Source of the DNA: Nitrosopumilus sp.
GTDB lineage: Archaea; Thermoproteota; Nitrososphaeria; Nitrososphaerales; Nitrosopumilaceae
Assembly (NCBI GenBank): GCA_965197525.1
Contig: OZ240211.1
Span: 160,001-224,000, forward strand
Direction of reading: 5' to 3'
Length of the DNA: 64,000 nucleotides
Of the stretch, positions 3,181-52,023 are shown piece by piece; the stretch's first letter is position 1; each line of letters starts with the position of its first letter. The notes under the pieces were generated by a model. That model had not been told where the DNA came from and did not search any database. It worked only from the letters and a program-made list of their open reading frames with translations. Position numbers and translations under genes: made by a program.

Positions 3181-4004
3181 AAACCGTTCCATCAAAATCC
3201 TGCCTGTACCACGTAGTCACCGTAATCGCAGATTTGGGTGACTGCACAAAATAATGGAATGGCAGACAGGATCCCACGCGCGCGGTTCCCTCCTGGGCGA
3301 CTCCACAGGGGTTGCCATAAACCAATACGCGGACTGGGAAGACACCAAGAGAGAGAGAGGGGACTTGTCTCCAGGTGCGAATTCGTCAAATTACACGTGA
3401 TCGTCGATGCCAAGGGAAGAAAGATCGTCTTCTGTGCAGTCATCAAAGGATGCGCGCACGACTCTCCAATATTCCGGGAAATGTTCGAGAATGTTCCAGA
3501 CGGCCTTGGGTGCGTGATGCTTGATGCCGGGTATGACGCAGTCAAGAACTACAAGATGATCCAAGACTCGGGCAGAAGACCTGTCATCTGCACCCTCAAG
3601 AACCACGTCGTAAGGGGATTTGGTCCGGAGGCGAGATGATCAGATGGTGGGAGAAGAACCCCAAAGAGTTTGAAGAGACGTACCATCCATGCAGCATAGT
3701 AGAGTCCGTGTTCTCGTAGTTCAAGTGTAGGTTCACTGCCGTGGTTCGCGCAAATACACTGCCGGCCCAAAGGTTGCAGCTGCTACTCAGGTGCATCTGC
3801 TACAACATGCTGTCGTGATGGAATGATGCAAAAATGCATGCCATGCACCTAGTATGTGTTGTGCGTCTTTGCGCGATTCTGGTACATGATGCATGATCTC
3901 ATGCTCCGATCACAGGAAATTCAGTCAGATGGATGGAATCAAAACCAATAAAACGCGTGTAAAAGAACATCATAGGTCTGTAGAACCAAGATTTGGACAA
4001 CGCC
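3181..4004 (+). mobile_element. Degenerate IS5/IS4-like (DDE_Tnp_1) element: 5'-truncated, frameshifted transposase plus right end
   Basis: GDSTG (first catalytic D, in a shifted frame, with the frameshift in a (GA)n run at ~3348-3358), then FVKLHVIVD, HDSP, LDAGYD, and frameshifted SIVESVFS*FK with an internal stop. GC is higher than the flanks; the end motif recurs at 1-17. Confidence 0.8.
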
Positions 4005-4152
4005 CTCGTTGTGTAATACATGATCCGTAATTTCTCAATTCTATCCATTTCAAGTTACAAATTTAAACAATATTCCGACAGGTTCTGTGAAGTTATCGGG
4101 GGTTATCTGTTAATCCCTAAATTGTATAAACCTCTAAACCGTAAGATATTCG

Positions 4153-5346
4153 TTGAAAGCGATAAAGTCAATATCACAGAAATATACGCCGAACTCTGAT
4201 CTAATGGATATGATGGCTATATTCACAAAGATGGTCAATCATTGCATCAAGACAGGATTGAAAGAAGACACTCACAATATGAAGAGGTTGTCCATGTTAT
4301 GTTATCATGAATTACGTAATTATGACATCCTGTCTTCATACAAACTAAATGCAATATCACGAGCTGCAGGCATGTTATCAAACAGAAAACAATCAATCAA
4401 ACGAGGTGTCAGAATAAGAGACCCAATAGTCAAAAATCCCTTTATGACAAACTGTTACGGTATACAACACAACGGTGCACTATTAACAATCCCATACAAG
4501 AAACATAACCCAATCAACATTTTACTCAACGATCACACCCAAAAAATCCTATCTGATCCCGCCTTGACGATGCGTTCGTTTTCATTGACTGCTCTGAACA
4601 TCAGTCTTTGTGTTTCAAAAACAGTACAAGAGATAGAGTGCACCAATCAAGTGGGAATAGACAGAAACCTAAGAAATGTGACGTGTGGGAACGAGAAAGA
4701 GGTGACAGTCTACAAGACAAACAAACTGTTATCCATAAAGGAGAACACAATACACGCTAGGGCAGGATTCCACAGAAATGATCGCAGAAAGAAAGGTCAA
4801 TTCTGGAAACAAAGACAGAGACGAATGAGCAATAGAACAAAGCAGTACATCCACAGAATCTCAAAGGATATAGTAGACAACGCAGTCAAAAACAAGACTG
4901 CAATCGTCATGGAAAACCTGAAAGGAATAAGAAAATTGTACCGAAAAGGAAACAGTCAAGGTAACAAGTACAGGCGTAGATTGAACGGGTGGCAATTCTA
5001 CGAGTTACAACGCCAAATAGAATACAAAGCCCAATGGGTCGGGTTGCCTCCAGTCGAGACAGTAGACCCAAGAAACACGAGCACGCAGTGTCCGAAATGC
5101 GGAAAGAGACTCCAAGAGGACATGCAACAACATCGTAAAATGTCGTGTAATAATTGCGGTTTGTTTATGGACAGGGATATTATCGCTGCCATGAACATAT
5201 CACGCAAGCTGCCCCCTAGGTTTAGGGGTAGTAGAGATGACATAGATGAAGCGCAGTCCGGCACTTTTGAGCAGGCGATGACGGAACCCGGCACACCATT
5301 GGTAATCCGAATAGTCGATATGTCAAAGTCAAGTTATAGGGGTTAA
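4153..5346 (+). CDS. tnpB: RNA-guided endonuclease TnpB
   Basis: RuvC-I GIDRN, RuvC-II IVMENL, zinc finger CPKC..CNNC and RuvC-III DRDIIAAMNI all intact; TTG start. Confidence 0.95.
   Translation: MKAIKSISQKYTPNSDLMDMMAIFTKMVNHCIKTGLKEDTHNMKRLSMLCYHELRNYDILSSYKLNAISRAAGMLSNRKQSIKRGVRIRDPIVKNPFMTNCYGIQHNGALLTIPYKKHNPINILLNDHTQKILSDPALTMRSFSLTALNISLCVSKTVQEIECTNQVGIDRNLRNVTCGNEKEVTVYKTNKLLSIKENTIHARAGFHRNDRRKKGQFWKQRQRRMSNRTKQYIHRISKDIVDNAVKNKTAIVMENLKGIRKLYRKGNSQGNKYRRRLNGWQFYELQRQIEYKAQWVGLPPVETVDPRNTSTQCPKCGKRLQEDMQQHRKMSCNNCGLFMDRDIIAAMNISRKLPPRFRGSRDDIDEAQSGTFEQAMTEPGTPLVIRIVDMSKSSYRG
5209..5330 (+). ncRNA. Predicted omega-RNA scaffold overlapping tnpB 3' end (copy 1)
   Basis: Three stems with compensatory changes among copies; conservation ends at GATATGTCAAAGTC. 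Confidence 0.7.
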
Positions 5347-5415
5347 CCCTCGATAACTTCACAGAACCTTCCGACACGATTATATTCATATGGGTAGTCA
5401 GTTATTCCGACCCCT

Positions 5416-8400
5416 ATGACGATCCCGGCGAAAAACACTCTTTTCATATCCGCCCTAGTTATAGCATTGCCCATTCTCATAGTGGCGTGCACTGCACCGC
5501 ATGCCTACGGGCAGGCAGACGAGCGACCTTTTGTTATGACATGGGCCGTGAGGCAGGGGGGGTTAGTTACGATTCCCGTCGACGATGAGAACGGCACCTA
5601 CGGGGCGACCGGAGAATACACTGTAGACTGGGGGGATGGGACTGTGGAGACCATCAGCGGAACCGCGGAGCACAGATACGCCCATGCAGGCAACTACGCC
5701 ATAAGCATAACAGGGAACTATGCGAAGATCTATCTTTACGGTAGCATACCCAACGGATCCATGTCGGTAGAAGAATATATGGGGTCTACCAGCACGGCCA
5801 TTGCAAGAGTCGGGAGCTCACCCAACGGACTCCTGTCGATAGATCAATGGGGCGACGTCAAATGGACCTCTATGGCGTACGCATTCTCGGGCGCAAGGAA
5901 TCTGGTGTACAATGCAACCGACGTTCCGGATCTTTCCTTGGTGACTGACATGAACCACATGTTCTATTTTGCCAAAAAGTTTAACGGCAATCTCTCCGCG
6001 TGGGACGTCTCGGGTGTGACTGATATGAGCTACATGTTCTATGAAGCCACGGCGTTTAACGGCGACGTCTCAGAGTGGGACGTCTCTGGCGTGACTGACA
6101 TGAGTCGCATGTTTTACGAGTCTGACACCTTTAATCAGGACGTCTCAGAGTGGGACGTCTCTGGCGTGACTGACATAAGCTGGATGTTCAGCAGGGCATT
6201 TAATTTCAATCAAGACATATCATCATGGAATGTGTCGGGCGTGACTGACATGAGACGCATGTTTGCCAACGCCATATCTTTCAATCAGGACATCTCCTCG
6301 TGGGACGTCTCGAACGTAACTGACATGAGCTACATGTTCTACGGTTCTTACTCCTTTAACCACGACATCTCCTCGTGGGATGTCTCAAACGTGACTGACA
6401 TGAGCCACATGTTCCAGTTTGCCTACAAGTTTAACCGTGACATCCACGAGTGGAACGTCTCAAACGTGACTGACATGAACCACATGTTCAAGTATGCCGA
6501 GACGTTTAACGGTAACATCTCCTCGTGGAACGTCTCAAACGTGACTGACATGAACCACATGTTCGAATTTGCCTATGAGTTTAACGGTAACATCTCCGGA
6601 TGGGATGTCTCGGGCGTGGCAGACATGCGCGATATGTTCGATTCTGCCACCTCTTTCAACCAAAACCTTGGAAGATGGTACGTCGTGCCGGAAGATACGT
6701 CTATCGTTGACGGCGACTCTTCCCTTGTAGTTACTACCATATCGGCACAGAACGCCCACTTGGACAAACAGAATCCAACGTACGCCATCATTGTGGGGCA
6801 TGACTCTTCTGCCTTTGAAATGGATCACAACGTGCTCAAACTCAAAGCCACACCTGTACAATCTGTCAAATCCACATACATGGTAGGTGTGACTGCCACA
6901 GGTACGTTCGGTTCAAATAATCAACGACTCGTTAACATTACGGTGGTAGAATATGTGCCTGACACCACCCCTCCCAGTGTCAGTACGATCTGGAGGGACA
7001 GTCCAAGCAATGCGATTACCCATGACACCACCCTGCAATTTGGCATCATGTTCAGTGAGGACGTGCAAAACGTGAACGCTACGGACTTTGTGCTAACAGG
7101 TACCGGCAATGCCTCCGTAACCCACGTGTCAGGCTCCAGCGACGAGTACGGCGTTACAGTCTCGGTCACCGCTGATGGTACTGTGACGTTGGGATTGGCC
7201 GCGGATAACGACATCAAAGATGTGAGCGACAACGAACTGACTGACACCGTTCTCACAGCCGGAACCGACCGCACCTACACTGTTGACACGACTGCCCCCA
7301 CAGTCACGTCAATCGAAAGATACAGTCCCACAGACCAGAACACGGACAACCAGACGCTGGTGTACCAGGTGACGTTCAGCGAGAACGTCACCGGTGTGGA
7401 TACAGGCGACTTTGCCCTCTCGCAAGACAGCACCGGGGCAGGCAGCATAACCGGTCTGACAGGCTCCGGCTACATATACAACATGACAGTCTCTGCTGTA
7501 CAGGACGGCACGTACAACCTTGATCTGGCGTCATCAGGGCACGGTATAACAGATGAGGCAAGCAATCCCCTTACTAACATTGCACCTACAGGAGTGGATC
7601 ACACCTACACAGTCAGTACTGTACCTGCTGACACCACTGCACCAACACTATCATCAATTGAGCGGTACAGTCCCGTTACAGAAAGCACCGACAGCCAGAC
7701 GCTAATCTACGAGGTAACCTTCAGTGAGGATGTGACAGGGGTGGATGCGGCAGACTTTGTTATCTCTCAGGACAGCACTGGGACAGGCAGTACAACCTTG
7801 ACTGGTTCTGATAGCGTGTATTACGTAACAGTTTCTGCAACTCAGGACGGCACATACAACCTTGATCTTGTACAAAACCACGGCATTGAGGATTCGGCAG
7901 ATAATCCTTTAACTGATACTGCCACCACCGGAGTAGACCAGACATATACTGTCAACACCGTACCTGCTGATACCACGGCACCGACACTCACATCAATTGA
8001 GAGATACAATCCTGCTGCCGCAACTACTGACACCCAGACGCTAATCTACGAGGTAACCTTTAGCGAGGATGTAACCGGTGTGACACAGTCTGACTTTGTT
8101 CTGTCTTCTGATAGCACGGGTACTGCTGCTAATGCTGTAACCTCCATATCCGGTTCTGGCAGCCAGTACTTTGTAACGGTCTCTGCATCAAGTGACGGGA
8201 CATACAACCTTGATCTTGTACAAAACCACGGCATCGAGGATTCGGCAGATAACCCTCTAACTGATACTGTCACCACCGGAGTAGACCAGACATATACTGT
8301 CAACACCGTACCTGCTGATACCACGGCACCGACACTCACATCAATTAAGAGATACAATCCTGCTGCCGCAACTACTGACACCCAGACACTAGTCTACGAG

Positions 8401-11400
8401 GTAACCTTTAGCGAGGATGTAACCGGTGTAACCCAGTCCGACTTTGTTCTGTCTTCTGATAGCACGGGCGGTTCCGACCCAGGTACTGGTACCGGCCAGT
8501 TCACTCAGACCGAATCGCCATCAACTGCCATAACAGGTGATCAAGACGTTACTGATACTATAACAGTGTCTAGTCTTGGAAATGCTACATCAGTTTCAGT
8601 TAACCTAAACATTACTCATACATACATTGGTGATCTAAAGGTAGATTTGGTTGCCCCCGACGATACAGCCAAAACGTTACACAACTATTCAGGCAGTAGT
8701 TCAGACGATATAGTAGCTACATACACACCAAACTTTAACGGCGCCTCAATATCGGGAACATGGACGCTGAAGATCAACGACAACTTTCCGTCTGCAGATG
8801 ACGGCGTTCTGAACAGCTGGACACTCACAATTAATTATGGTGATACCCCCGATGTCCCCAATCCTGTAACCTCCATATCCGGTTCTGGCAGCCAGTACTT
8901 TGTAACGGTCTCTGCATCAAGTGACGGGACATACAACCTTGATCTTGTACAAAACCACGGCATTGAGGATTCGGCAGATAACCCTCTAACTGATACTGCC
9001 ACCACCGGAGTAGACCAGACATATACTGTCAACACGGTACCTGCTGATACCACTGCACCGACACTCACATCAATTAAGAGATACAATCCTGCTGTTGCAA
9101 CTACTGACACCCAGACACTAGTATACAAGGTAACCTTTAGCGAGGATGTAACCGGTGTGACACAGTCTGACTTTGTTCTGTCTTCTGATAGCACGGGTAC
9201 TGCTGCTAATGCTGTAACCTCCATATCCGGTTCCGGCAGCCAGTACTTTGTAACGGTCTCTGCATCAAGTGACGGGACATACAACCTTGATCTTGTACAA
9301 AACCACGGCATCGAGGATTCGGCAGATAACCCTCTAACTGATACTGCCACCACCGGAGTAGACCAGACATATACTGTCAACACGGTACCTGCTGATACCA
9401 CTGCACCGACACTCACATCAATTAAGAGATACAATCCTGCTGCCGCAACTACTGACACCCAGACGCTAATCTACGAGGTAACCTTTAGCGAGGATGTAAC
9501 CGGTGTGACACAGTCCGACTTTGTTCTGTCTTCTGATAGCACGGGTACTGCTGCTAATGCTGTAACCTCCATATCCGGTTCCGGCAGCCAGTACTTTGTA
9601 ACGGTCTCTGCATCAAGTGACGGGACATACAACCTTGATCTTGTACAAAACCACGGCATTGAGGATTCGGCAGATAACCCTCTAACTGATACTGCCACCA
9701 CCGGAGTAGACCAGACATATACTGTCAACACGGTACCTGCCGACAACATGGCACCGACACTCACGTCAATTGAGAGATACAATCCTGCTGCCGCAACTAC
9801 TGACACCCAGACACTAGTCTACGAGGTAACCTTTAGCGAGGATGTGACTGAGGTGGATGCAACTGACTTTGCCCTGTCTTCTGATAGCACGGGCGGAGTC
9901 AGTTCCAGTCAGTTCACGCAGACACGTTCTCCTGCCATTGCCATAACTGCAGCTAACACCATAACAGATACCATTACAGTCCCAGGCTCTGGTACTGTTA
10001 CGTCAGTCTCTGTCGCAATAGATGTATCCCACACATACAAAGGCGACCTCAAGATAGATCTCATCGCCCCAGACGGCACGACCAAGACCGTCCACAACCG
10101 CTCTGGAGGCAGCGCAGATGACATAGACCAGACATACACACCAGACTTTGCAGGCGTTCCAATTGCAGGTATCTGGACGCTACAGATAAACGACAACTAT
10201 GCCACCGCAGACGACGGTACCCTGAACAGCTGGACGCTTACGATCAATTCTGGTAGCAGTAGTAGTATTGATACGTCAAACCCTGTAACATCAGTCTCAG
10301 GTTCTGGCGACACGTACCAAGTGACGGTTTTGGCCACACAGGACGGCACATACAACCTTGATCTGATATCGTCAGGACACGACATCGAAGACGAATCAAA
10401 CAATCCACTAACAGACGTGACTCCAACTACAGGTACTGACGAGACGTATACCGTCAATACCGTACCTGATGACACCACTGCACCAACACTATCATCAATT
10501 GAGCGGTCCAGTCCCGTTACAGAAAACACCGACAGCCAGACGCTGACCTACAAGGTGACCTTTAGCGAGGACGTCACCGGAGTGGACACGACTGACTTTG
10601 CCCTGTCTTCTGATAGCACGGGCGGATCAAGCTCTGCCCAGTTCACACAGACACGTTCTCCTGCCATTGCCATAACTGCAGCTAACACCATAACAGATAC
10701 CATTACAGTCCCAGGCTCTGGTACTGTTACGTCAGTCTCTGTCGCAATAGATGTATCCCACACATACAAAGGCGACCTCAAGATAGATCTCATCGCCCCA
10801 GACGGCACGACCAAGACCGTCCACAACCGCTCTGGAGGCAGCGCAGATGACATAGACCAGACATACACACCAGACTTTGCAGGCGTTCCAATTGCAGGTA
10901 TCTGGACGCTACAGATAAACGACAACTATGCCACCGCAGACGACGGTACCCTGAACAGCTGGACGCTTACGATCAATTCTGGTAGCAGTAGTAGTATTGA
11001 TACGTCAAACCCTGTAACATCAGTCTCAGGTTCTGGCGACACGTACCAAGTGACGGTTTTGGCCACACAGGACGGCACATACAACCTTGATCTGATATCG
11101 TCAGGACACGACATCGAAGACGAATCAAACAATCCACTAACAGACGTGACTCCAACTACAGGTACTGACGAGACGTATACCGTCAATACCGTACCTGATG
11201 ACACCACTGCACCAACACTATCATCAATTGAGCGGTCCAGTCCCGTTACAGAAAACACCGACAGCCGGACGCTGACCTACAAGGTGACCTTTAGCGAGGA
11301 CGTCACCGGAGTGGACACGACTGACTTTGCCCTGTCTTCTGATAGCACGGGCGGATCAAGCTCTGCCCAGTTCACACAGACACGTTCTCCTGCCATTGCC

Positions 11401-14400
11401 ATAACTGCAGCTAACACCATAACAGATACCATTACAGTCCCAGGCTCTGGTACTGTTACGTCAGTCTCTGTCGCAATAGATGTATCCCACACATACAAAG
11501 GCGACCTCAAGATAGATCTCATCGCCCCAGACGGCACGACCAAGACCGTCCACAACCGCTCTGGAGGCAGCGCAGATGACATAGACCAGACATACACACC
11601 AGACTTTGCAGGCGTTCCAATTGCAGGTATCTGGACGCTACAGATAAACGACAACTATGCCACCGCAGACGACGGTACCCTGAACAGCTGGACGCTTACG
11701 ATCAATTCTGGTAGCAGTAGTAGTATTGATACGTCAAACCCTGTAACATCAGTCTCAGGTTCTGGCGACACGTACCAAGTGACGGTTTTGGCCACACAGG
11801 ACGGCACATACAACCTTGATCTGATATCGTCAGGACACGACATCGAAGACGAATCAAACAATCCACTAACAGACGTGACTCCAACTACAGGTACTGACGA
11901 GACGTATACCGTCAATACCGTACCTGATGACACCACTGCACCAACACTATCATCAATTGAGCGGTCCAGTCCCGTTACAGAAAACACCGACAGCCAGACG
12001 CTGACCTACAAGGTGACCTTTAGCGAGGACGTCACCGGAGTGGACACGACTGACTTTGCCCTGTCTTCTGATAGCACGGGCGGATCAAGCTCTGCCCAGT
12101 TCACACAGACACGTTCTCCTGCCATTGCCATAACTGCAGCTAACACCATAACAGATACCATTACAGTCCCAGGCTCTGGTACTGTTACGTCAGTCTCTGT
12201 CGCAATAGATGTATCCCACACATACAAAGGCGACCTCAAGATAGATCTCATCGCCCCAGACGGCACGACCAAGACCGTCCACAACCGCTCTGGAGGCAGC
12301 GCAGATGACATAGACCAGACATACACACCAGACTTTGCAGGCGTTCCAATTGCAGGTATCTGGACGCTACAGATAAACGACAACTATGCCACCGCAGACG
12401 ACGGTACCCTGAACAGCTGGACGCTTACGATCAATTCTGGTAGCAGTAGTAGTATTGATACGTCAAACCCTGTAACATCAGTCTCAGGTTCTGGCGACAC
12501 GTACCAAGTGACGGTTTTGGCCACACAGGACGGCACATACAACCTTGATCTGATATCGTCAGGACACGACATCGAAGACGAATCAAACAATCCACTAACA
12601 GACGTGACTCCAACTACAGGTACTGACGAGACGTATACCGTCAATACCGTACCTGATGACACCACTGCACCAACACTATCATCAATTGAGCGGTCCAGTC
12701 CCGTTACAGAAAACACCGACAGCCGGACGCTGACCTACAAGGTGACCTTTAGCGAGGACGTCACCGGAGTGGACACGACTGACTTTGCCCTGTCTTCTGA
12801 TAGCACGGGCGGATCAAGCTCTGCCCAGTTCACACAGACACGTTCTCCTGCCATTGCCATAACTGCAGCTAACACCATAACAGATACCATTACAGTCCCA
12901 GGCTCTGGTACTGTTACGTCAGTCTCTGTCGCAATAGATGTATCCCACACATACAAAGGCGACCTCAAGATAGATCTCATCGCCCCAGACGGCACGACCA
13001 AGACCGTCCACAACCGCTCTGGAGGCAGCGCAGATGACATAGACCAGACATACACACCAGACTTTGCAGGCGTTCCAATTGCAGGTATCTGGACGCTACA
13101 GATAAACGACAACTATGCCACCGCAGACGACGGTACCCTGAACAGCTGGACGCTTACGATCAATTCTGGTAGCAGTAGTAGTATTGATACGTCAAACCCT
13201 GTAACATCAGTCTCAGGTTCTGGCGACACGTACCAAGTGACGGTTTTGGCCACACAGGACGGCACATACAACCTTGATCTGATATCGTCAGGACACGACA
13301 TCGAAGACGAATCAAACAATCCACTAACAGACGTGACTCCAACTACAGGTACTGACGAGACGTATACCGTCAATACCGTACCTGATGACACCACTGCACC
13401 AACACTATCATCAATTGAGCGGTCCAGTCCCGTTACAGAAAACACCGACAGCCAGACGCTGACCTACAAGGTGACCTTTAGCGAGGACGTCACCGGAGTG
13501 GACACGACTGACTTTGCCCTGTCTTCTGATAGCACGGGCGGTTCTGACACAGGTACTGGTACTGGTACTGGCCAGTTCACTCAGACCAACTCACCATCAA
13601 CTGCCATAACAGGTGCTCAAGATGTTACTGATACTATAGCAGTGTCTAGTTCTGGAAATGTTGCATCAGTTTCAGTTGACCTAAACATTACTCATACATA
13701 CATTAGTGATCTAAAGGTAGATTTGGTTGCCCCTGACGGTACAACCCAAACGTTACACAATCGTTCAGGCGGTAGTTCAGACGACATAGTAGCTACATAC
13801 ACACCAAGCTTTAATGGCACCTCAATATCAGGAACATGGACGCTGAAGATCAACGACGACTATCCGTCTGCTGATGACGGCATTCTGAACAGCTGGACAC
13901 TCACAATTAATTATGGCGATACTGCCGATGTCCCCAATCCTATAACCTCCATATCCGGTTCTGGCAGCCAGTACTTTGTGACAGTCTCTGCATCAAGTGA
14001 TGGGACATACAACCTTGATCTTGTACAAAACCACGGCATCGAGGATTCGGCAGATAATCCTCTAACTGATACTGCCACCACCGGAGTAGACCACACCTAC
14101 ACGGTCAACACAGTACCTGCTGATACCACAGCACCAACACTCACATCAATTGAGAGATACAATCCTGTTGCTGCAACTACTGACAGCCAGATACTAGTCT
14201 ACGAGGTAACCTTTAGCGAAGATATAACCGGTGTGACACAGTCTGACTTTACCCTGTCTTCTGATAGTACGGGCGGTCCTGACCCAGGTACTGGTACTGG
14301 TACTGGCCAGTTCACTCAGACCAACTCACCATCGACTGCCATAACAGGTGCTCAAGATGTTACTGATACTATAGCAGTGTCTAGTTCTGGAAATGTTGCA

Positions 14401-19626: not shown

Positions 19627-20826
19627 ATGCAAGCCATAAAATCAATAACACAAAAGCATACGCCAAACTCTGAACTAAAAGAGTTGATGGATACATTCAT
19701 AGAAATGGTAAACCTTTCCATTAGAATAGGACTAAAAGAAGATGTATACAATATGAAACGGTTGTCTTATCTATGTTATCATGAGTTAAATCAATATGAT
19801 ATCTTATCATCATACAAGCTCAATGCAATATCAAGGGCTGCTGGCATACTATCAAACAGAAGGCAATCAATAAAACGTGGCGTCAAAGTTAAATATCCAA
19901 AAATAAAAAAGCCATTTATCACTAATTGTTACGGTATAAAACACAATGGTGCACTACTAACAATACCATTCAAGAACAGGCAACCTATCAATATACTGTT
20001 AAATGATCACACTCAAAATATTCTGTCTGACCCTGAATTAACTATACGTTCATTTTCATTAAATGATGGCACCATTAGTATTTGTGTCTCAAAACAAATA
20101 GAAGAGATAGAGTGCTCCAATGTAGTAGGTATAGACAGAAACCTTAGAAATATCACATGTGGGAATGATGAAAAAGTAATGTTCTATAAAACTAACAAAC
20201 TGTTATCTATCAAAGAGAACACAATACATGCAAGAGCTGGTTTTCACAGAAATGATCGAAGAAAGAAAGGTCGATTCTGGAAGGTAAAACAGCAAAGAAT
20301 GGCCAATAGAACAAAACAATACATACACAAAATATCAAAAGATATTGTGGATAATGCCGTTAGTAAAAAGGCTGTAATTGTGTTAGAAAACTTGAAAGGA
20401 ATAAGAAAATTGTACAAGAAAGGAAATGGTCAAGGAAACAAGTATAGACGTAGATTGAATGGCTGGCAATTCTACGAGTTACAACGCCAAATAGAATACA
20501 AAGCCCAATGGGCTGGACTCCCAGTCAAATTTGTAGACCCAAAACGCACGAGCACGCAATGTCCAAGATGCGGAAAGAAACTCCAAGAGGACATGCAACA
20601 ACATCGTAAAATGTCGTGTAATAATTGTGGATTATTCATGGACAGAGACATCATAGCTGCCATGAACATATCACGCAAACTGTCCCCTAGGTTTAGGGAT
20701 AGTAGAGATGGCATAAGTGAAGCGCAGTCTGACGTTTTTGAATCAGCGATGATGGAACCCTGCAGACAGGTAATCCAGATAGTCGATATGTCAAAGTCCA
20801 GTGTTCTGAGTAATTGTTATTGTTAA
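19627..20826 (+). CDS. tnpB: RNA-guided endonuclease TnpB
   Basis: GIDRN / IVLENL / CPRC..CNNC / DRDIIAAMNI intact. Confidence 0.95.
   Translation: MQAIKSITQKHTPNSELKELMDTFIEMVNLSIRIGLKEDVYNMKRLSYLCYHELNQYDILSSYKLNAISRAAGILSNRRQSIKRGVKVKYPKIKKPFITNCYGIKHNGALLTIPFKNRQPINILLNDHTQNILSDPELTIRSFSLNDGTISICVSKQIEEIECSNVVGIDRNLRNITCGNDEKVMFYKTNKLLSIKENTIHARAGFHRNDRRKKGRFWKVKQQRMANRTKQYIHKISKDIVDNAVSKKAVIVLENLKGIRKLYKKGNGQGNKYRRRLNGWQFYELQRQIEYKAQWAGLPVKFVDPKRTSTQCPRCGKKLQEDMQQHRKMSCNNCGLFMDRDIIAAMNISRKLSPRFRDSRDGISEAQSDVFESAMMEPCRQVIQIVDMSKSSVLSNCYC
20680..20798 (+). ncRNA. Predicted omega-RNA scaffold (copy 2)
   Basis: Same stems as copy 1 with compensatory changes. Confidence 0.7.
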
Positions 20827-20886
20827 TAACACCACTCGTGAATGCAACAGAACCGATTATATTTAGCAAATAAATTTTCAAATCAT

Positions 20887-22389: not shown

Positions 22390-23601
22390 TTGTTGAGAGC
22401 AATAAAGTCAATAGCACAAAAACATACACCAAACTCTGACCTAATGGACATGATGATCACGTTCACAGACATGGTTAACCGTTGTATCAAGATAGGGCTA
22501 AAGGAAGATACCCACAACATGAAACGGTTGTCTATGTTATGCTATCCCGAATTACGTCACTACGACATCCTATCTTCATACAAGCTCAATGCAATATCAC
22601 GAGCTGCTGGCATCCTGGCAAACAGAGATCAGTCAGTCAAACGTGGCCTCAAAGTAAAAGATCCAATTATCAAAAATCCGTTTATCACTAATTGTTACCG
22701 TATAAAACACAACGGCGCCTTACTCACAATTCCATACAAGCCAAGAAATCCAATTAACATCCTACTCGACGAACATACTCAAAAAATACTGTCTGATCCC
22801 GCCTTGGCAGTGCGCTCGTTTTCATTGACTGCTCTCAACATCAGTCTTTGTATTTCAAAAAAAGTACAGGAGATAGAGTGCACCAAGACAGTGGGAGTAG
22901 ACAGAAACCTTAGAAACGTCACATGCGGAAATGAAGAAGAGGTAACATTCTACAAAACCAACAAGTTACTCTCAATCAAAGAGAACACAATACATGCCAG
23001 ATCTGGTTTCCGTAGAAACGACAAAAGAAAGAAAGGTCAATTCTACAAAGAAAAACAGAGAAGAATGTCAAACAGGACAAAACAGTACATACACAGAATC
23101 TCAAAAAACATAGTAGACAATGCAGTCAAGAAAAAGGCTGTCATTGTTCTAGAAAATCTAAAGGGAATTAGAAAACTGTACAGAAAAGGAAACAATCAAG
23201 GCAACAAATACAGACGTAGATTGAACGGATGGCAATTCTTTGAACTACAAAGACAAATAGAATACAAAGCCCAATGGGTCGGGCTACCTGTAAAAACAGT
23301 AGACCCAAAAAACACGAGCACGCAGTGTCCGCAATGCGGAAAGAGACTCCAAGAGGACATGCAACAACATCGTAAATCATCGTGTAATAATTGCGGTTTG
23401 TTTATGGACAGGGATATCATCGCTGCCATGAACATATCACGCAAACTGTCTCCTAGGTTTAGAGATAGTAGAGATGGCATACATGAAGCGCAGTCCGGTG
23501 TTTTTGAACCGGCGATGGCGGAACCCTGCAGACCGGTAATCCGAATAGTCGATATGTCAAAGTCGAGTAGTCAATGTGTTGTTGATGGTTGTGGAATCTG
23601 A
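22390..23601 (+). CDS. tnpB: RNA-guided endonuclease TnpB
   Basis: GVDRN / IVLENL / CPQC..CNNC / DRDIIAAMNI intact. Confidence 0.95.
   Translation: MLRAIKSIAQKHTPNSDLMDMMITFTDMVNRCIKIGLKEDTHNMKRLSMLCYPELRHYDILSSYKLNAISRAAGILANRDQSVKRGLKVKDPIIKNPFITNCYRIKHNGALLTIPYKPRNPINILLDEHTQKILSDPALAVRSFSLTALNISLCISKKVQEIECTKTVGVDRNLRNVTCGNEEEVTFYKTNKLLSIKENTIHARSGFRRNDKRKKGQFYKEKQRRMSNRTKQYIHRISKNIVDNAVKKKAVIVLENLKGIRKLYRKGNNQGNKYRRRLNGWQFFELQRQIEYKAQWVGLPVKTVDPKNTSTQCPQCGKRLQEDMQQHRKSSCNNCGLFMDRDIIAAMNISRKLSPRFRDSRDGIHEAQSGVFEPAMAEPCRPVIRIVDMSKSSSQCVVDGCGI
23446..23564 (+). ncRNA. Predicted omega-RNA scaffold (copy 3)
   Basis: Covarying stems, e.g. CTGTCTCCTA/TAGAGATAG and CCGGT/ACCGG. Confidence 0.7.
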
Positions 23602-23672
23602 CATGATCCTCAGCAGTCAACACCCGTTAACCCAACAGAACCATAATATAGTCATAGTTTGTAATACAAACA

Positions 23673-29605: not shown

Positions 29606-30814
29606 TTGAGAGCAATAAAGTCAATAGCACAAAAACATGCACCAAACTCTGACCTAATGGATATGATGATCACGTTCACAGACATGGTTAACCGTTGTAT
29701 CAAGATAGGGCTAAAGGAAGATACCCACAACATGAAACGGTTGTCTATGTTATGTTATCACGAATTACGTCACTACGACATCCTATCTTCATACAAACTC
29801 AATGCAATATCACGAGCGGCTGGCATCCTGGCAAACAGAGATCAGTCAGTCAAACGCGGTGTCAAAGTAAAAGATCCAATTATCAAAAATCCGTTTATCA
29901 CTAATTGTTACCGTATAAAACACAACGGCGCCTTACTCACAATTCCATACAAGCCAAGAAATCCAATTAACATCCTACTCAACGAACATACTCAAAAAAT
30001 ACTGTCGGATCCAGCCTTGAGAGTTCGCTCGTTTTCATTGACTGCTCTTAACATCAGTCTTTGTATTTCAAAAGAAGTACAGGAGATAGAGTGCACCAAA
30101 ACAGTAGGAGTAGACAGAAACCTTCGAAACGTCACATGCGGAAATGAAGAAGAGGTAACAGTCTACAAAACCAACAAGTTACTATCAATCAAAGAGAACA
30201 CAATACATGCCAGATCTGGTTTCCGTAGAAACGACAAAAGAAAGAAAGGTCAATTCTACAAAGAAAAACAGAGAAGAATGTCAAACAGAACAAAACAGTA
30301 CATACACAGAATCTCAAAAAACATAGTAGACAATGCAGTTAAGAAAAAAGCTGTCATTGTTCTAGAAAATCTAAAGGGAATTAGAAAACTGTACAGAAAA
30401 GGAAACGGTCAAGGCGACAAATACAGACGTAGATTGAACGGATGGCAATTCTTTGAACTACAAAGACAAATAGAGTACAAAGCCCAATGGGTCGGGCTAC
30501 CTGTAAAAACAGTAGACCCAAAAAACACGAGCACGCAGTGTCCAAGATGCGGAAAGAGACTCCAAGAGGACATGCAACAACATCGTAAATCATCGTGTAA
30601 TAATTGCGGTTTATTTATGGACAGGGATATCATCGCTGCCATGAACATATCACGCAAACTGTCTCCTAGGTTTAGAGATAGTAGAGATGGCATACATGAA
30701 GCGCAGTCCGGTGTTTTTGAACCGGCGATGGCGGAATCCTGCAGACCGGTAATCCGAATAGTCGATATGTCAAAGTCGAGTAGTCAATGTGTTGTTGATG
30801 GTTGTGGAATCTGA
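29606..30814 (+). CDS. tnpB: RNA-guided endonuclease TnpB
   Basis: Nearly identical to copy 3; catalytic D-E-D intact. Confidence 0.95.
   Translation: MRAIKSIAQKHAPNSDLMDMMITFTDMVNRCIKIGLKEDTHNMKRLSMLCYHELRHYDILSSYKLNAISRAAGILANRDQSVKRGVKVKDPIIKNPFITNCYRIKHNGALLTIPYKPRNPINILLNEHTQKILSDPALRVRSFSLTALNISLCISKEVQEIECTKTVGVDRNLRNVTCGNEEEVTVYKTNKLLSIKENTIHARSGFRRNDKRKKGQFYKEKQRRMSNRTKQYIHRISKNIVDNAVKKKAVIVLENLKGIRKLYRKGNGQGDKYRRRLNGWQFFELQRQIEYKAQWVGLPVKTVDPKNTSTQCPRCGKRLQEDMQQHRKSSCNNCGLFMDRDIIAAMNISRKLSPRFRDSRDGIHEAQSGVFEPAMAESCRPVIRIVDMSKSSSQCVVDGCGI
30659..30777 (+). ncRNA. Predicted omega-RNA scaffold (copy 4)
   Basis: Near-identical to the copy 3 scaffold. Confidence 0.68.
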
Positions 30815-30865
30815 CATGATCCTCAGCAGTCAACACCCGTTAACCCAACAGAACCTACATAAGAA

Positions 30866-46898: not shown

Positions 46899-47540
46899 AA
46901 AACTAACAAACTGTTATCTATCAAAGAGAACACAATACATGCAAAAGCTGGTTTTCACAGAAATGACCGTAGAAAAAAAGGTCAATTCTGGAAGGTAAAA
47001 CAGCAAAGAATGGCCAATAGAACAAAACAATACATACACAAAATATCAAAAGATATTGTGGATAATGCCGTTAGTAAAAAGGCTGTAATTGTGTTAGAAA
47101 ACTTGAAAGGAATAAGAAAATTGTACAAGAAAGGAAATGGTCAAGGCAACAAATACAGACGTAGATTGAATGGCTGGCAATTCTACGAGTTACAACGCCA
47201 AATAGAATACAAAGCCCAATGGGCCGGGCTCCCACCAGTAAGATATGTAGACCCAAAAAACACGAGCACGCAATGTCCAAGATGCGGAAAGGGACTCCAA
47301 GAGGACATGCAACACAGACGTAAAATGTCGTGTAATAATTGTGGATTATACATGGATAGAGACATTGTAGCTTCCATGAATATATCTCGCAAACTGTCCC
47401 CTAGGTTTAGGGATAGTAGAGTTGGCATAAGTGAAGCGCAGTCTGACGTTTTTGAGTCAGCGATGATGGAACCCTGTATACCGGTAATCCAGATAGTCGA
47501 TATGTCAAAGTCCAGTGTTCTGAGTGATTGTTATTGTTAA
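46899..47540 (+). pseudogene. tnpB: Truncated tnpB (lacks the N-terminal half including RuvC-I)
   Basis: Retains IVLENL, zinc finger and DRDIVASMNI. Confidence 0.9.
47394..47512 (+). ncRNA. Predicted omega-RNA scaffold (copy 6)
   Basis: Near-identical to the copy 2 scaffold. Confidence 0.62.
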
Positions 47541-47612
47541 TAATACCACTCGTGAATGCAACAGAACCGCCTAATCCAAGAGCTTAAATATATTCAGAGA
47601 ATGTTGTTTTTT

Positions 47613-50678: not shown

Positions 50679-50811
50679 GATGATGAATGCTAATTATTAT
50701 GTTATTTTCTTGTTTTTATATAAATTTGATTTGACGTCAATACATCATATGATGGTATCTTGATGTGGAAGGTTCTGTTGGGCTAACGGGTGTTGACTGC
50801 TGAGGATCATG

Positions 50812-52023
50812 TCAGATTCCACAACCATCAACAACACATTGACTACTCGACTTTGACATATCGACTATTCGGATTACCGGTCTGCAGGGTTCCGCCATCG
50901 CCGGTTCAAAAACACCGGACTGCGCTTCATGTATGCCATCTCTACTATCTCTAAACCTAGGAGACAGTTTGCGTGATATGTTCATGGCAGCGATGATATC
51001 CCTGTCCATAAACAAACCGCAATTATTACACGATGATTTACGATGTTGTTGCATGTCCTCTTGGAGTCTCTTTCCGCATTGCGGACACTGCGTGCTCGTG
51101 TTTTTTGGGTCTACTGTTTTTACAGGTAGCCCGACCCATTGGGCTTTGTATTCTATTTGTCTTTGTAGTTCAAAGAATTGCCATCCGTTCAATCTACGTC
51201 TGTATTTGTCGCCTTGACCGTTTCCTTTTCCGTACAGTTTTCTAATTCCCTTTAGATTTTCTAGAACAATGACAGCCTTTTTCTTGACTGCATTGTCTAC
51301 TATGTTTTTTGAGATTCTGTGTATGTACTGTTTTGTTCTGTTTGACATTCTTCTCTGTTTTTCTTTGTAGAATTGACCTTTCTTTCTTTTGTCGTTTCTA
51401 CGGAAACTGGATCTGGCATGTATTGTGTTCTCTTTGATTGAGAGTAACTTGTTGGTTTTGTAGAATGTTACCTCTTCTTCATTTCCGCATGTGACGTTTC
51501 TAAGGTTTCTGTCTACTCCTACTGTCTTGGCGCACTCTATCTCCTGTACTTTTTTTGAAATACAAAGACTGATGTTGAGAGCAGTCAATGAAAACGAGCG
51601 CACTGCCAAGGCGGGATCCGACAGTATTTTTTGAGTATGTTCGTTGAGTAGGATGTTAATTGGATTTCTTGGCTTGTATGGAATTGTGAGTAAGGCGCCG
51701 TTGTGTTTTATACGGTAACAATTAGTGATAAACGGATTTTTGATAATTGGATCTTTTACTTTGAGGCCACGTTTGACTGACTGATCTCTGTTTGCCAGGA
51801 TGCCAGCAGCTCGTGATATTGCATTGAGTTTGTATGAAGATAGGATGTCGTAGTGACGTAATTCGTGATAGCATAACATAGACAACCGTTTCATGTTGTG
51901 GGTATCTTCCTTTAGCCCTATCTTGATACAACGGTTAACCATGTCTGTGAACGTGATCATCATGTCCATTAGGTCAGAGTTTGGTGTATGTTTTTGTGCT
52001 ATTGACTTTATTGCTCTCAACAA
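50812..52023 (-). CDS. tnpB: RNA-guided endonuclease TnpB
   Basis: Nearly identical to copies 3 and 4; catalytic D-E-D intact. Confidence 0.95.
   Translation of the reverse strand: MLRAIKSIAQKHTPNSDLMDMMITFTDMVNRCIKIGLKEDTHNMKRLSMLCYHELRHYDILSSYKLNAISRAAGILANRDQSVKRGLKVKDPIIKNPFITNCYRIKHNGALLTIPYKPRNPINILLNEHTQKILSDPALAVRSFSLTALNISLCISKKVQEIECAKTVGVDRNLRNVTCGNEEEVTFYKTNKLLSIKENTIHARSSFRRNDKRKKGQFYKEKQRRMSNRTKQYIHRISKNIVDNAVKKKAVIVLENLKGIRKLYGKGNGQGDKYRRRLNGWQFFELQRQIEYKAQWVGLPVKTVDPKNTSTQCPQCGKRLQEDMQQHRKSSCNNCGLFMDRDIIAAMNISRKLSPRFRDSRDGIHEAQSGVFEPAMAEPCRPVIRIVDMSKSSSQCVVDGCGI
50849..50967 (-). ncRNA. Predicted omega-RNA scaffold (copy 5)
   Basis: Matches the copy 3 scaffold. Confidence 0.68.

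Follow-up and report, generated by a model that had tools for sequence, protein, structure and literature searches.

The window analysed here is a 64,000-nucleotide stretch of an archaeal genome (Nitrosopumilus sp., contig OZ240211.1), and it carries a mobile element whose tnpB gene seems to encode an RNA within its own 3′ end. Judged from its sequence, window 5205-5368 would specify a TnpB omegaRNA scaffold, read in sense orientation across the last ~45 tnpB codons, with the DNA flanking the element as guide. We put the probability of this reading at roughly 0.88. An omegaRNA overlapping a dispensable coding tail is of a known kind; this one comes from a clade without a published model and rides on an unusual carrier. 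An initial annotation of the stretch had already proposed an omegaRNA, and this identity now draws support from a covarying sense-strand fold over the 3′ portion of an intact tnpB; the fold stops exactly at the element boundary and shares the topology of the ISDra2 RNA. What the annotation overlooked is an IS6-type right inverted repeat, which provides the final hairpin arm as well as a strand of the probable pseudoknot.

The tnpB open reading frame (ORF) lies at 4153..5346 on the plus strand, as do all features of this copy (copy 1), and encodes 397 amino acids (aa) from a TTG start. It matches Cas12f1-like_TNB in Pfam (4.8e-21) and guided_TnpB in NCBIfam (129 bits against a cut-off of 100). 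The RuvC triad is intact: the motifs GIDRN, VMENL and DRDIIAAMNI can be read in the ORF, which aligns to the RuvC/TNB regions of solved TnpB and Cas12f proteins. The alignment to these structures stops at about residue 351-353, at the DRDIIAAMNI motif, and the C-terminal tail is thus outside the conserved core. The host genome is a single contig of 2.21 Mb (39.6% G+C, 99% complete), located in sponge samples by public sequencing runs. About 50 element copies and fragments are spread over it, in subfamilies that are 76-99% identical.

What does the RNA look like? The initial annotation had listed three stems and a GACATA/TATGTC pairing, and all four are present where it had put them. Stem 1 pairs 5208-5215 with 5225-5232 around the loop CTAGGTTTA (5216-5224). 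Its arms read CTGCCCC/GGGGTAG in copy 1; the copy that ends at 20854 has CTGTCCC/GGGATAG, and the one that ends at 23642 has CTGTCTC/GAGATAG. Seven of the eight pairs show changes on both sides; in G004 and G021 the stem is wholly swapped (GCGTGG/CCATGC) with the loop CTAGGTTTA kept unchanged. A long-range helix joins 5238..5249 to 5315..5325, the latter within the invariant block GTAATCC..ATAGTCGATATGTCAAAGTC. RNAalifold extends the GACATA/TATGTC pairing to 7 bp (TGACATA at 5238-5244 with TATGTCA at 5319-5325) and adds a UGA/UCG helix (5247-5249 with 5315-5317). The hexamers become GATACA/TGTATC in distant homologues, and six pairs of this helix have three to five pair types each in the broad alignment A3 described below. 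Enclosed by it are two internal stems. Stem 2 is a hairpin at 5258..5275 (5258-5262 with 5271-5275), with CCGG/CCGG in one copy, CTGA/TCAG in another and GTTCC/GGAAC or GTGA/TCAC in distant homologues. Copy 1 has one G-A mismatch here, 5260 against 5273; the pair is restored by a C at 5273 in most sister copies, and likewise in several metatranscriptome and metagenome contigs. As stem 2 is missing in most distant relatives, it is a lineage-specific insertion. Stem 3 spans 5282..5309 (5282-5285 with 5306-5309, inner pairs 5288-5289 with 5301-5302) and reads CGGA/TCCG or TGGA/TCCA.

The fold continues beyond the invariant block into a terminal hairpin (5331..5359) that holds the stop codon TAA (5344-5346) in its loop. 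It differs in length among subfamilies and folds in nearly all of them. For its 3′ arm it uses the inner bases of the right inverted repeat, and its 5′ arm differs among subfamilies in step with the variant of that repeat. The extent first assigned to the scaffold, 5209-5330, is therefore too short: this region is folded, but the end lies at 5368, not 5330. The last five bases of the element, GAACC at 5364..5368, probably form a pseudoknot with GGUUU in the stem-1 loop (5219..5223). When GGUU(U/C) is set against GAACC, all five positions are paired in 26 of 29 sequences, the fifth pair being C-G or U·G and alternating by clade. Mismatches occur in three sequences, at an outer position, and the strands are otherwise invariant. 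A change on both sides is seen in one sequence only (L076, A-U for G-C), whose left end was not found to confirm the boundary.

How far is this pairing kept by selection? Alignment A1 holds 37 tails, 32 of them from the own genome across subfamilies and five from three other genomes, with TnpBs 61-65% and 40% identical. RNAalifold recovers all four listed helices from it unprompted. Standard pairs fill 97.1% of the cells, compared with 26-41% when the partners are slid by 1-3 columns; 20 of the 34 pairs have changed on both sides (4-8 when slid), and the covariation score is 0.306 (0.016-0.069 when slid). None of 500 shuffles reached the observed values. The core was then turned into a covariance model, R1 (125 positions, 29 pairs), and a search of 150 genomes sampled from the order gave full-length matches in nine others, from four other families, with E values of 1e-8 to 7e-4. 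In the distant genomes inspected, the element end ...AGAACC or a close variant (mostly ...ACAGAACC) lies 24-85 nt downstream of the core. The R1 matches and closer relatives, 31 distinct sequences with ten other genomes represented, were aligned to the model and make up alignment A3, and covariation holds in this larger set: 93.9% of cells are standard pairs against 21-38% when slid, 206 cells are changed on both sides against 13-40, 22 pairs are changed on both sides, and the score is 0.54 against 0.02-0.06. The shuffles ignore relatedness; the slid control keeps it and is exceeded by a wide margin.

Two further features speak for the fold. G·U pairs outnumber A·C by 124:10 in A1 and 80:10 in A3, and as each G·U would be a mismatch on the opposite strand, this excess indicates that it is the tnpB sense strand that folds. 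Ten derivatives of 208-497 bp encode no protein and still have the scaffold, with 275 of 286 pairs kept (96%); most have inverted repeats at both ends and half have perfect duplications. Rfam 15 gives no match in the window at the gathering threshold, and a search of region 5100-5420 at E values up to 10 returns a chance match to mir-196 only.

The same bases are also coding. The frame is open through the fold in every full-length copy, and insertions and deletions within the fold are multiples of three. In the gene body, diversity at codon positions 1/2/3 is 0.117/0.068/0.280, the ratio of non-synonymous to synonymous diversity (pN/pS) is 0.19 and pS is 0.565. Over 41 tail codons the corresponding values are 0.101/0.121/0.119, 0.63 and 0.196, so that the third-position excess is gone and pS falls to about a third of that of the body. 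Where stem 1 has compensatory changes, the encoded residues differ in both arms, Pro to Ser in one together with Gly to Asp in the other. Together, the flat codon-position pattern and these amino-acid-altering paired changes identify the dominant constraint on the tail: it acts on nucleotides, not on protein. The proposal that the RNA structure is under selection is upheld by this, as is that of a dual-coding tail, although the latter comprises ~45 codons after MNISRK and not ~50.

Third-position diversity among tnpB copies is already low upstream of stem 1, at 0.05-0.15 in window 5056-5160 against ~0.3 in the gene body, and it rebounds to 0.23-0.31 at 5146-5190, between this block and the scaffold. 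The mini-elements without protein retain sequence from ~5068 onward. The low-diversity block could be an internal promoter, an omegaRNA 5′ leader or the result of gene conversion between copies.

What kind of element carries this RNA? It spans 4081-5368 and is bounded by a 25-bp inverted repeat, GGTTCTGTGAAGTTATCG.GGGTTA. The left terminal copy lies at 4081..4105 (GGTTCTGTGAAGTTATCGGGGGTTA), and the right one, at 5344..5368, ends in ...ATAACTTCACAGAACC and doubles as terminal-hairpin arm and putative pseudoknot strand. The 8-bp target-site duplication TTCCGACA flanks both (4073..4080 on the left, 5369-5376 on the right). In total, 49 right ends could be located; each has ACAGAACC as its last bases, and the sequences beyond them are unrelated. 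Duplications are perfect or near-perfect in 21 of the 38 copies with a recognisable left end, and in 25 end pairs genome-wide. The other 17 left ends belong to copies without a matching 8-bp duplication, many of them full-length with intact inverted repeats and the upstream motif TTR; such copies are as expected if copies have recombined with each other or undergone intramolecular IS26-like events.

Members of the IS6/IS26 family have ends beginning GGTTCTG and make 8-bp target duplications. By the sequence of its ends, IS6-like inverted repeats beginning GGTTCTG, and by its 8-bp duplications, the carrier is an IS6-type, non-autonomous element. It is not a member of IS200/IS605: inverted repeats and 8-bp duplications are present, and a PF01797 search of the 99%-complete genome finds no Y1 TnpA. 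The annotation was right that an IS605-type right end is absent; an IS6-type inverted repeat stands there instead. The tnpB elements have no transposase of their own. Their likely mobiliser in trans, to judge by the shared ends, is a 1970-bp element of the same genome (G000:C1:746475-748444, L036:413-2382) with ends GGTTCTGT...ACAGAACC and the 8-bp duplication CTATTGTG. The DDE protein that it encodes is 378 aa long and has an additional zinc-binding region at the N terminus; its best NCBIfam match is transpos_IS6 (2e-29, full model covered, 102.8 bits and thus below the cut-off of 125); the Pfam PF13610 matches are weak, and NCBIfam was used instead. Similar ends are also present on elements 4.1 kb, 5.1 kb and 851 bp in length.

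The left flank holds a putative target-adjacent motif (TAM) at 4070..4072, at -11 to -9 from the left end, which reads ATA in copy 1 and has the family consensus TTR. Upstream of 38 left ends, position -11 is T in 29, -10 is T in 35, and -9 is A or G in 37. The same comparison on the right flank gives no TAM-like signal. No one-sided target motif is known from IS6 elements.

Six copies of the element lie inside the window. Besides copy 1, scaffolds are found on the plus strand at 20676..20854 (second subfamily), 23442..23642 (third subfamily), 30655..30855 (a further copy) and 47390..47568 (a 5′-truncated copy), and on the minus strand at 50771..50971. Directly left of the tnpB element, short overlapping ORFs at 3238-3800 look, by appearance only, like DDE-transposase fragments of another insertion sequence (IS) type. 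On the right, 47 nt past the element end, begins a 3965-aa ORF (window 5416-17313), a surface-protein gene with many tandem units of BspA/DUF285-like leucine-rich, P-domain-like and FG-GAP-like repeats; the putative guide of copy 1 falls in its upstream region.

How would such an RNA work? In the proposed fold, the stem-1 loop would pair with the last five bases, the long-range helix would enclose the two internal stems, and the terminal hairpin would use the right inverted repeat. We infer from the sequence that this RNA is made and bound by TnpB. It would read on into the flanking DNA, so that the guide would consist of the 8-bp target duplication and the host flank. If the guide is the flank that follows ACAGAACC, it begins with the duplication. 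Its start and length, like cleavage of the empty site, we infer from the mapped element ends and the ISDra2 model; for an assumed length, it would occupy 5369..5388 on the plus strand, the right duplication copy plus host flank. An empty site would present TTR, then the duplication, then the host flank, that is, TAM then target (TTCCGACACGATTATATTCA-type), and TnpB with its RNA would recognise this same site when it is empty, next to the TTR motif. The filled site would match the guide over its first 8 nt only. Contigs from two sponge metatranscriptome runs cover the element, with a summed depth that is highest at 5173-5325 and zero beyond 5377, and several of them start near 5178-5190.

Several observations count against this interpretation. 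The pseudoknot strands are near-invariant, which transposase binding to the inverted repeat might explain equally well. Many of the aligned sequences are copies within one genome and hence not independent, and A3 was fitted to the structure of the model, which leans its counts towards that structure. The RNA runs consist of assembled contigs, from which neither ends nor strand nor level can be read and in which DNA may be present; the 3′ part of the element is also its most repeated DNA, so contig depth is a weak hint of expression, and we do not take it as a sign of RNA processing. One recent copy with both flanks, compared with 40 genomes of the genus, gave no clean empty site. A homing nuclease would also have no obvious benefit here: IS6-type transposition, probably copy-in, would leave no excision gap to repair. 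In two genomes of that comparison (L100 and L101, from G018 and G002), the guide-side flank of the copy concerned (L010) is matched at 98% through the 8-bp duplication and followed by unrelated sequence; the insertion point of this copy coincides with a breakpoint between genomes.

Is the scaffold real, then, and the task of TnpB something other than homing? TnpB and its RNA might guide the site or orientation of IS6-type insertion through the TAM, or regulate a neighbouring gene. The TTR motif is found on one side only, at a distance of exactly 8 bp from the left end, a pattern not expected from a symmetric DDE transposase, and the few IS6-like elements without tnpB, a very small sample, have TTR at neither end. 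Copy-in transposition leaves nothing for homing to restore, according to the portion of a recent review drawn on here (PMC13565253), and read-out from copy 1 would head for the 5′ end of the surface-protein gene, 47 nt away. We nevertheless hold these alternatives to be unlikely. The intact RuvC motifs fit a cutting enzyme; a guide derived from the donor flank cannot direct insertion to new sites, and the motif could also arise if, once inserted, copies next to a TAM were favoured by selection; a scan of the genome with the putative guides (16 nt, up to two mismatches) found chance-level matches only and no second targets. A rather improbable variant, to which we give some thought all the same, is that TnpB, or its surface that reads the TAM, biases the site and orientation of IS6-type insertion, so that each copy would be born with a usable TAM-guide pair and the one-sided TTR motif would be more than a leftover of selection. 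If true, the inverted-repeat tip doubling as pseudoknot strand would tie the TnpB and transposase machines together physically, and an insertion-biasing TnpB would couple nuclease and DDE transposase in minimal form and without CRISPR.

Other readings dispense with the guide altogether. Since the fold lies within and just past the ORF, with the stop codon in a hairpin loop, it might be a cis-acting mRNA structure governing stability, termination or translation. This is very unlikely given that the fold is kept in mini-elements without the tnpB ORF, always ends at the element boundary, matches a solved omegaRNA in topology and co-occurs with tnpB across TnpBs that are only ~40% identical (the G027 homologue). 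IS200/IS605 elements, in which tnpB normally rides, use subterminal DNA hairpins, and one could ask whether the helices are single-stranded DNA hairpins for transposition of that sort, or whether the covariation is a by-product of constraint on the protein. Both ideas have next to no probability and were rejected on account of the DDE-type ends, the abundance of G·U and the codon-position pattern. The genome search found no Y1 transposase, inverted repeats and 8-bp duplications mark double-strand DDE chemistry, the helices reach up to 160 nt inside the element, and abundant G·U pairs fit RNA; the paired changes of stem 1 alter amino acids on both sides, and the diversity across codon positions is unlike protein constraint. 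An omegaRNA scaffold with a guide taken from the flank thus stays the preferred reading.

The fold provides a structure-annotated omegaRNA model for a TnpB clade without an Rfam family, spanning at least five families of ammonia-oxidising archaea. It would also be an example of a guide-RNA scaffold that has been built into the inverted repeat of a transposon of DDE type. In TnpB elements, an omegaRNA that overlaps the coding tail is to be expected; it is the carrier that shifts the positions of TAM and guide. One stretch of bases would act as transposase end, last hairpin arm and pseudoknot strand, and the guide would then start with the duplication, a TAM and guide geometry that differs from both IS605 TnpB and Fanzor. 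The role of a homing nuclease for a copy-in transposon becomes directly testable.

How does the element compare with known systems? With IS6/IS26 it shares ends beginning GGTTCTG and 8-bp duplications, and an element with the same ends and an IS6-like DDE transposase is present in the genome. Unlike in that family, the transposase scores below the family cut-off and has the extra zinc-binding region, the tnpB elements are without one of their own, and the target motif is one-sided.

The closest structural counterpart is the omegaRNA, or right-end element RNA (reRNA), of ISDra2, an IS200/IS605 element of Deinococcus radiodurans solved by cryo-electron microscopy (PMC10097598). In that RNA, the loop of stem 1 is paired to bases -6 to -2 ahead of the guide, stem 3 lies within a long-range stem 2, and stem 4 is terminal; the C-terminal part of TnpB whose coding sequence overlaps the RNA is disordered and can be dispensed with (PMC10097598). 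Both RNAs overlap the tnpB 3′ end on the sense strand, and in both a long-range stem spans internal stem-loop structure and a terminal hairpin precedes the guide. Pairing of the stem-1 loop with the pre-guide bases is probable here, and the guide would likewise come from DNA flanking the right end. The protein tail that overlaps the RNA is outside the folded core in each case. The differences are as clear. There is no detectable similarity in sequence or to Rfam models, and the scaffold is ~161 nt long compared with 116 nt in ISDra2. The right end here is an IS6-type inverted repeat, whereas that of the ISDra2 type is an IS605 subterminal hairpin. The TAM of ISDra2, TTGAT, adjoins the left end; the putative TAM here is a short TTR, and a variable 8-bp duplication stands between it and the left end, which means that the duplication has to come first in the guide.

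TnpBs have been associated with DDE transposons before. Altae-Tran et al. (2023, PMC10691335) describe, in the sections used here, the branches DDE-1 to DDE-6 and solo TnpBs with matching ends. As in these branches, tnpB lies between inverted terminal repeats typical of DDE elements, its 3′ end within 250 bp of the transposon end; as with the solo TnpBs, the ends are common to transposase-bearing elements, which implies mobilisation in trans. IS630 is named there for DDE-6, and ISL2, IS630 and IS1031 are listed in the corresponding part of the later review (PMC13565253). Within these portions of the two papers, IS6 is not named for DDE-associated TnpBs, and an omegaRNA structure, a duplication serving as guide or a one-sided TAM is not described for the DDE branches. 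The review also covers, in the same portion, the omegaRNAs of Fanzors in eukaryotic DDE transposons, which resemble the present case as RNA-guided nucleases of the TnpB family on elements with inverted repeats and target duplications (PMC13565253). In Fanzors, as set out there, the 5′ duplication is in the TAM and the 3′ duplication in the scaffold. The duplication here is variable and could belong to the guide and target only. Unlike Fanzor1, which is without a pseudoknot in that account, the RNA described here seems to keep one.

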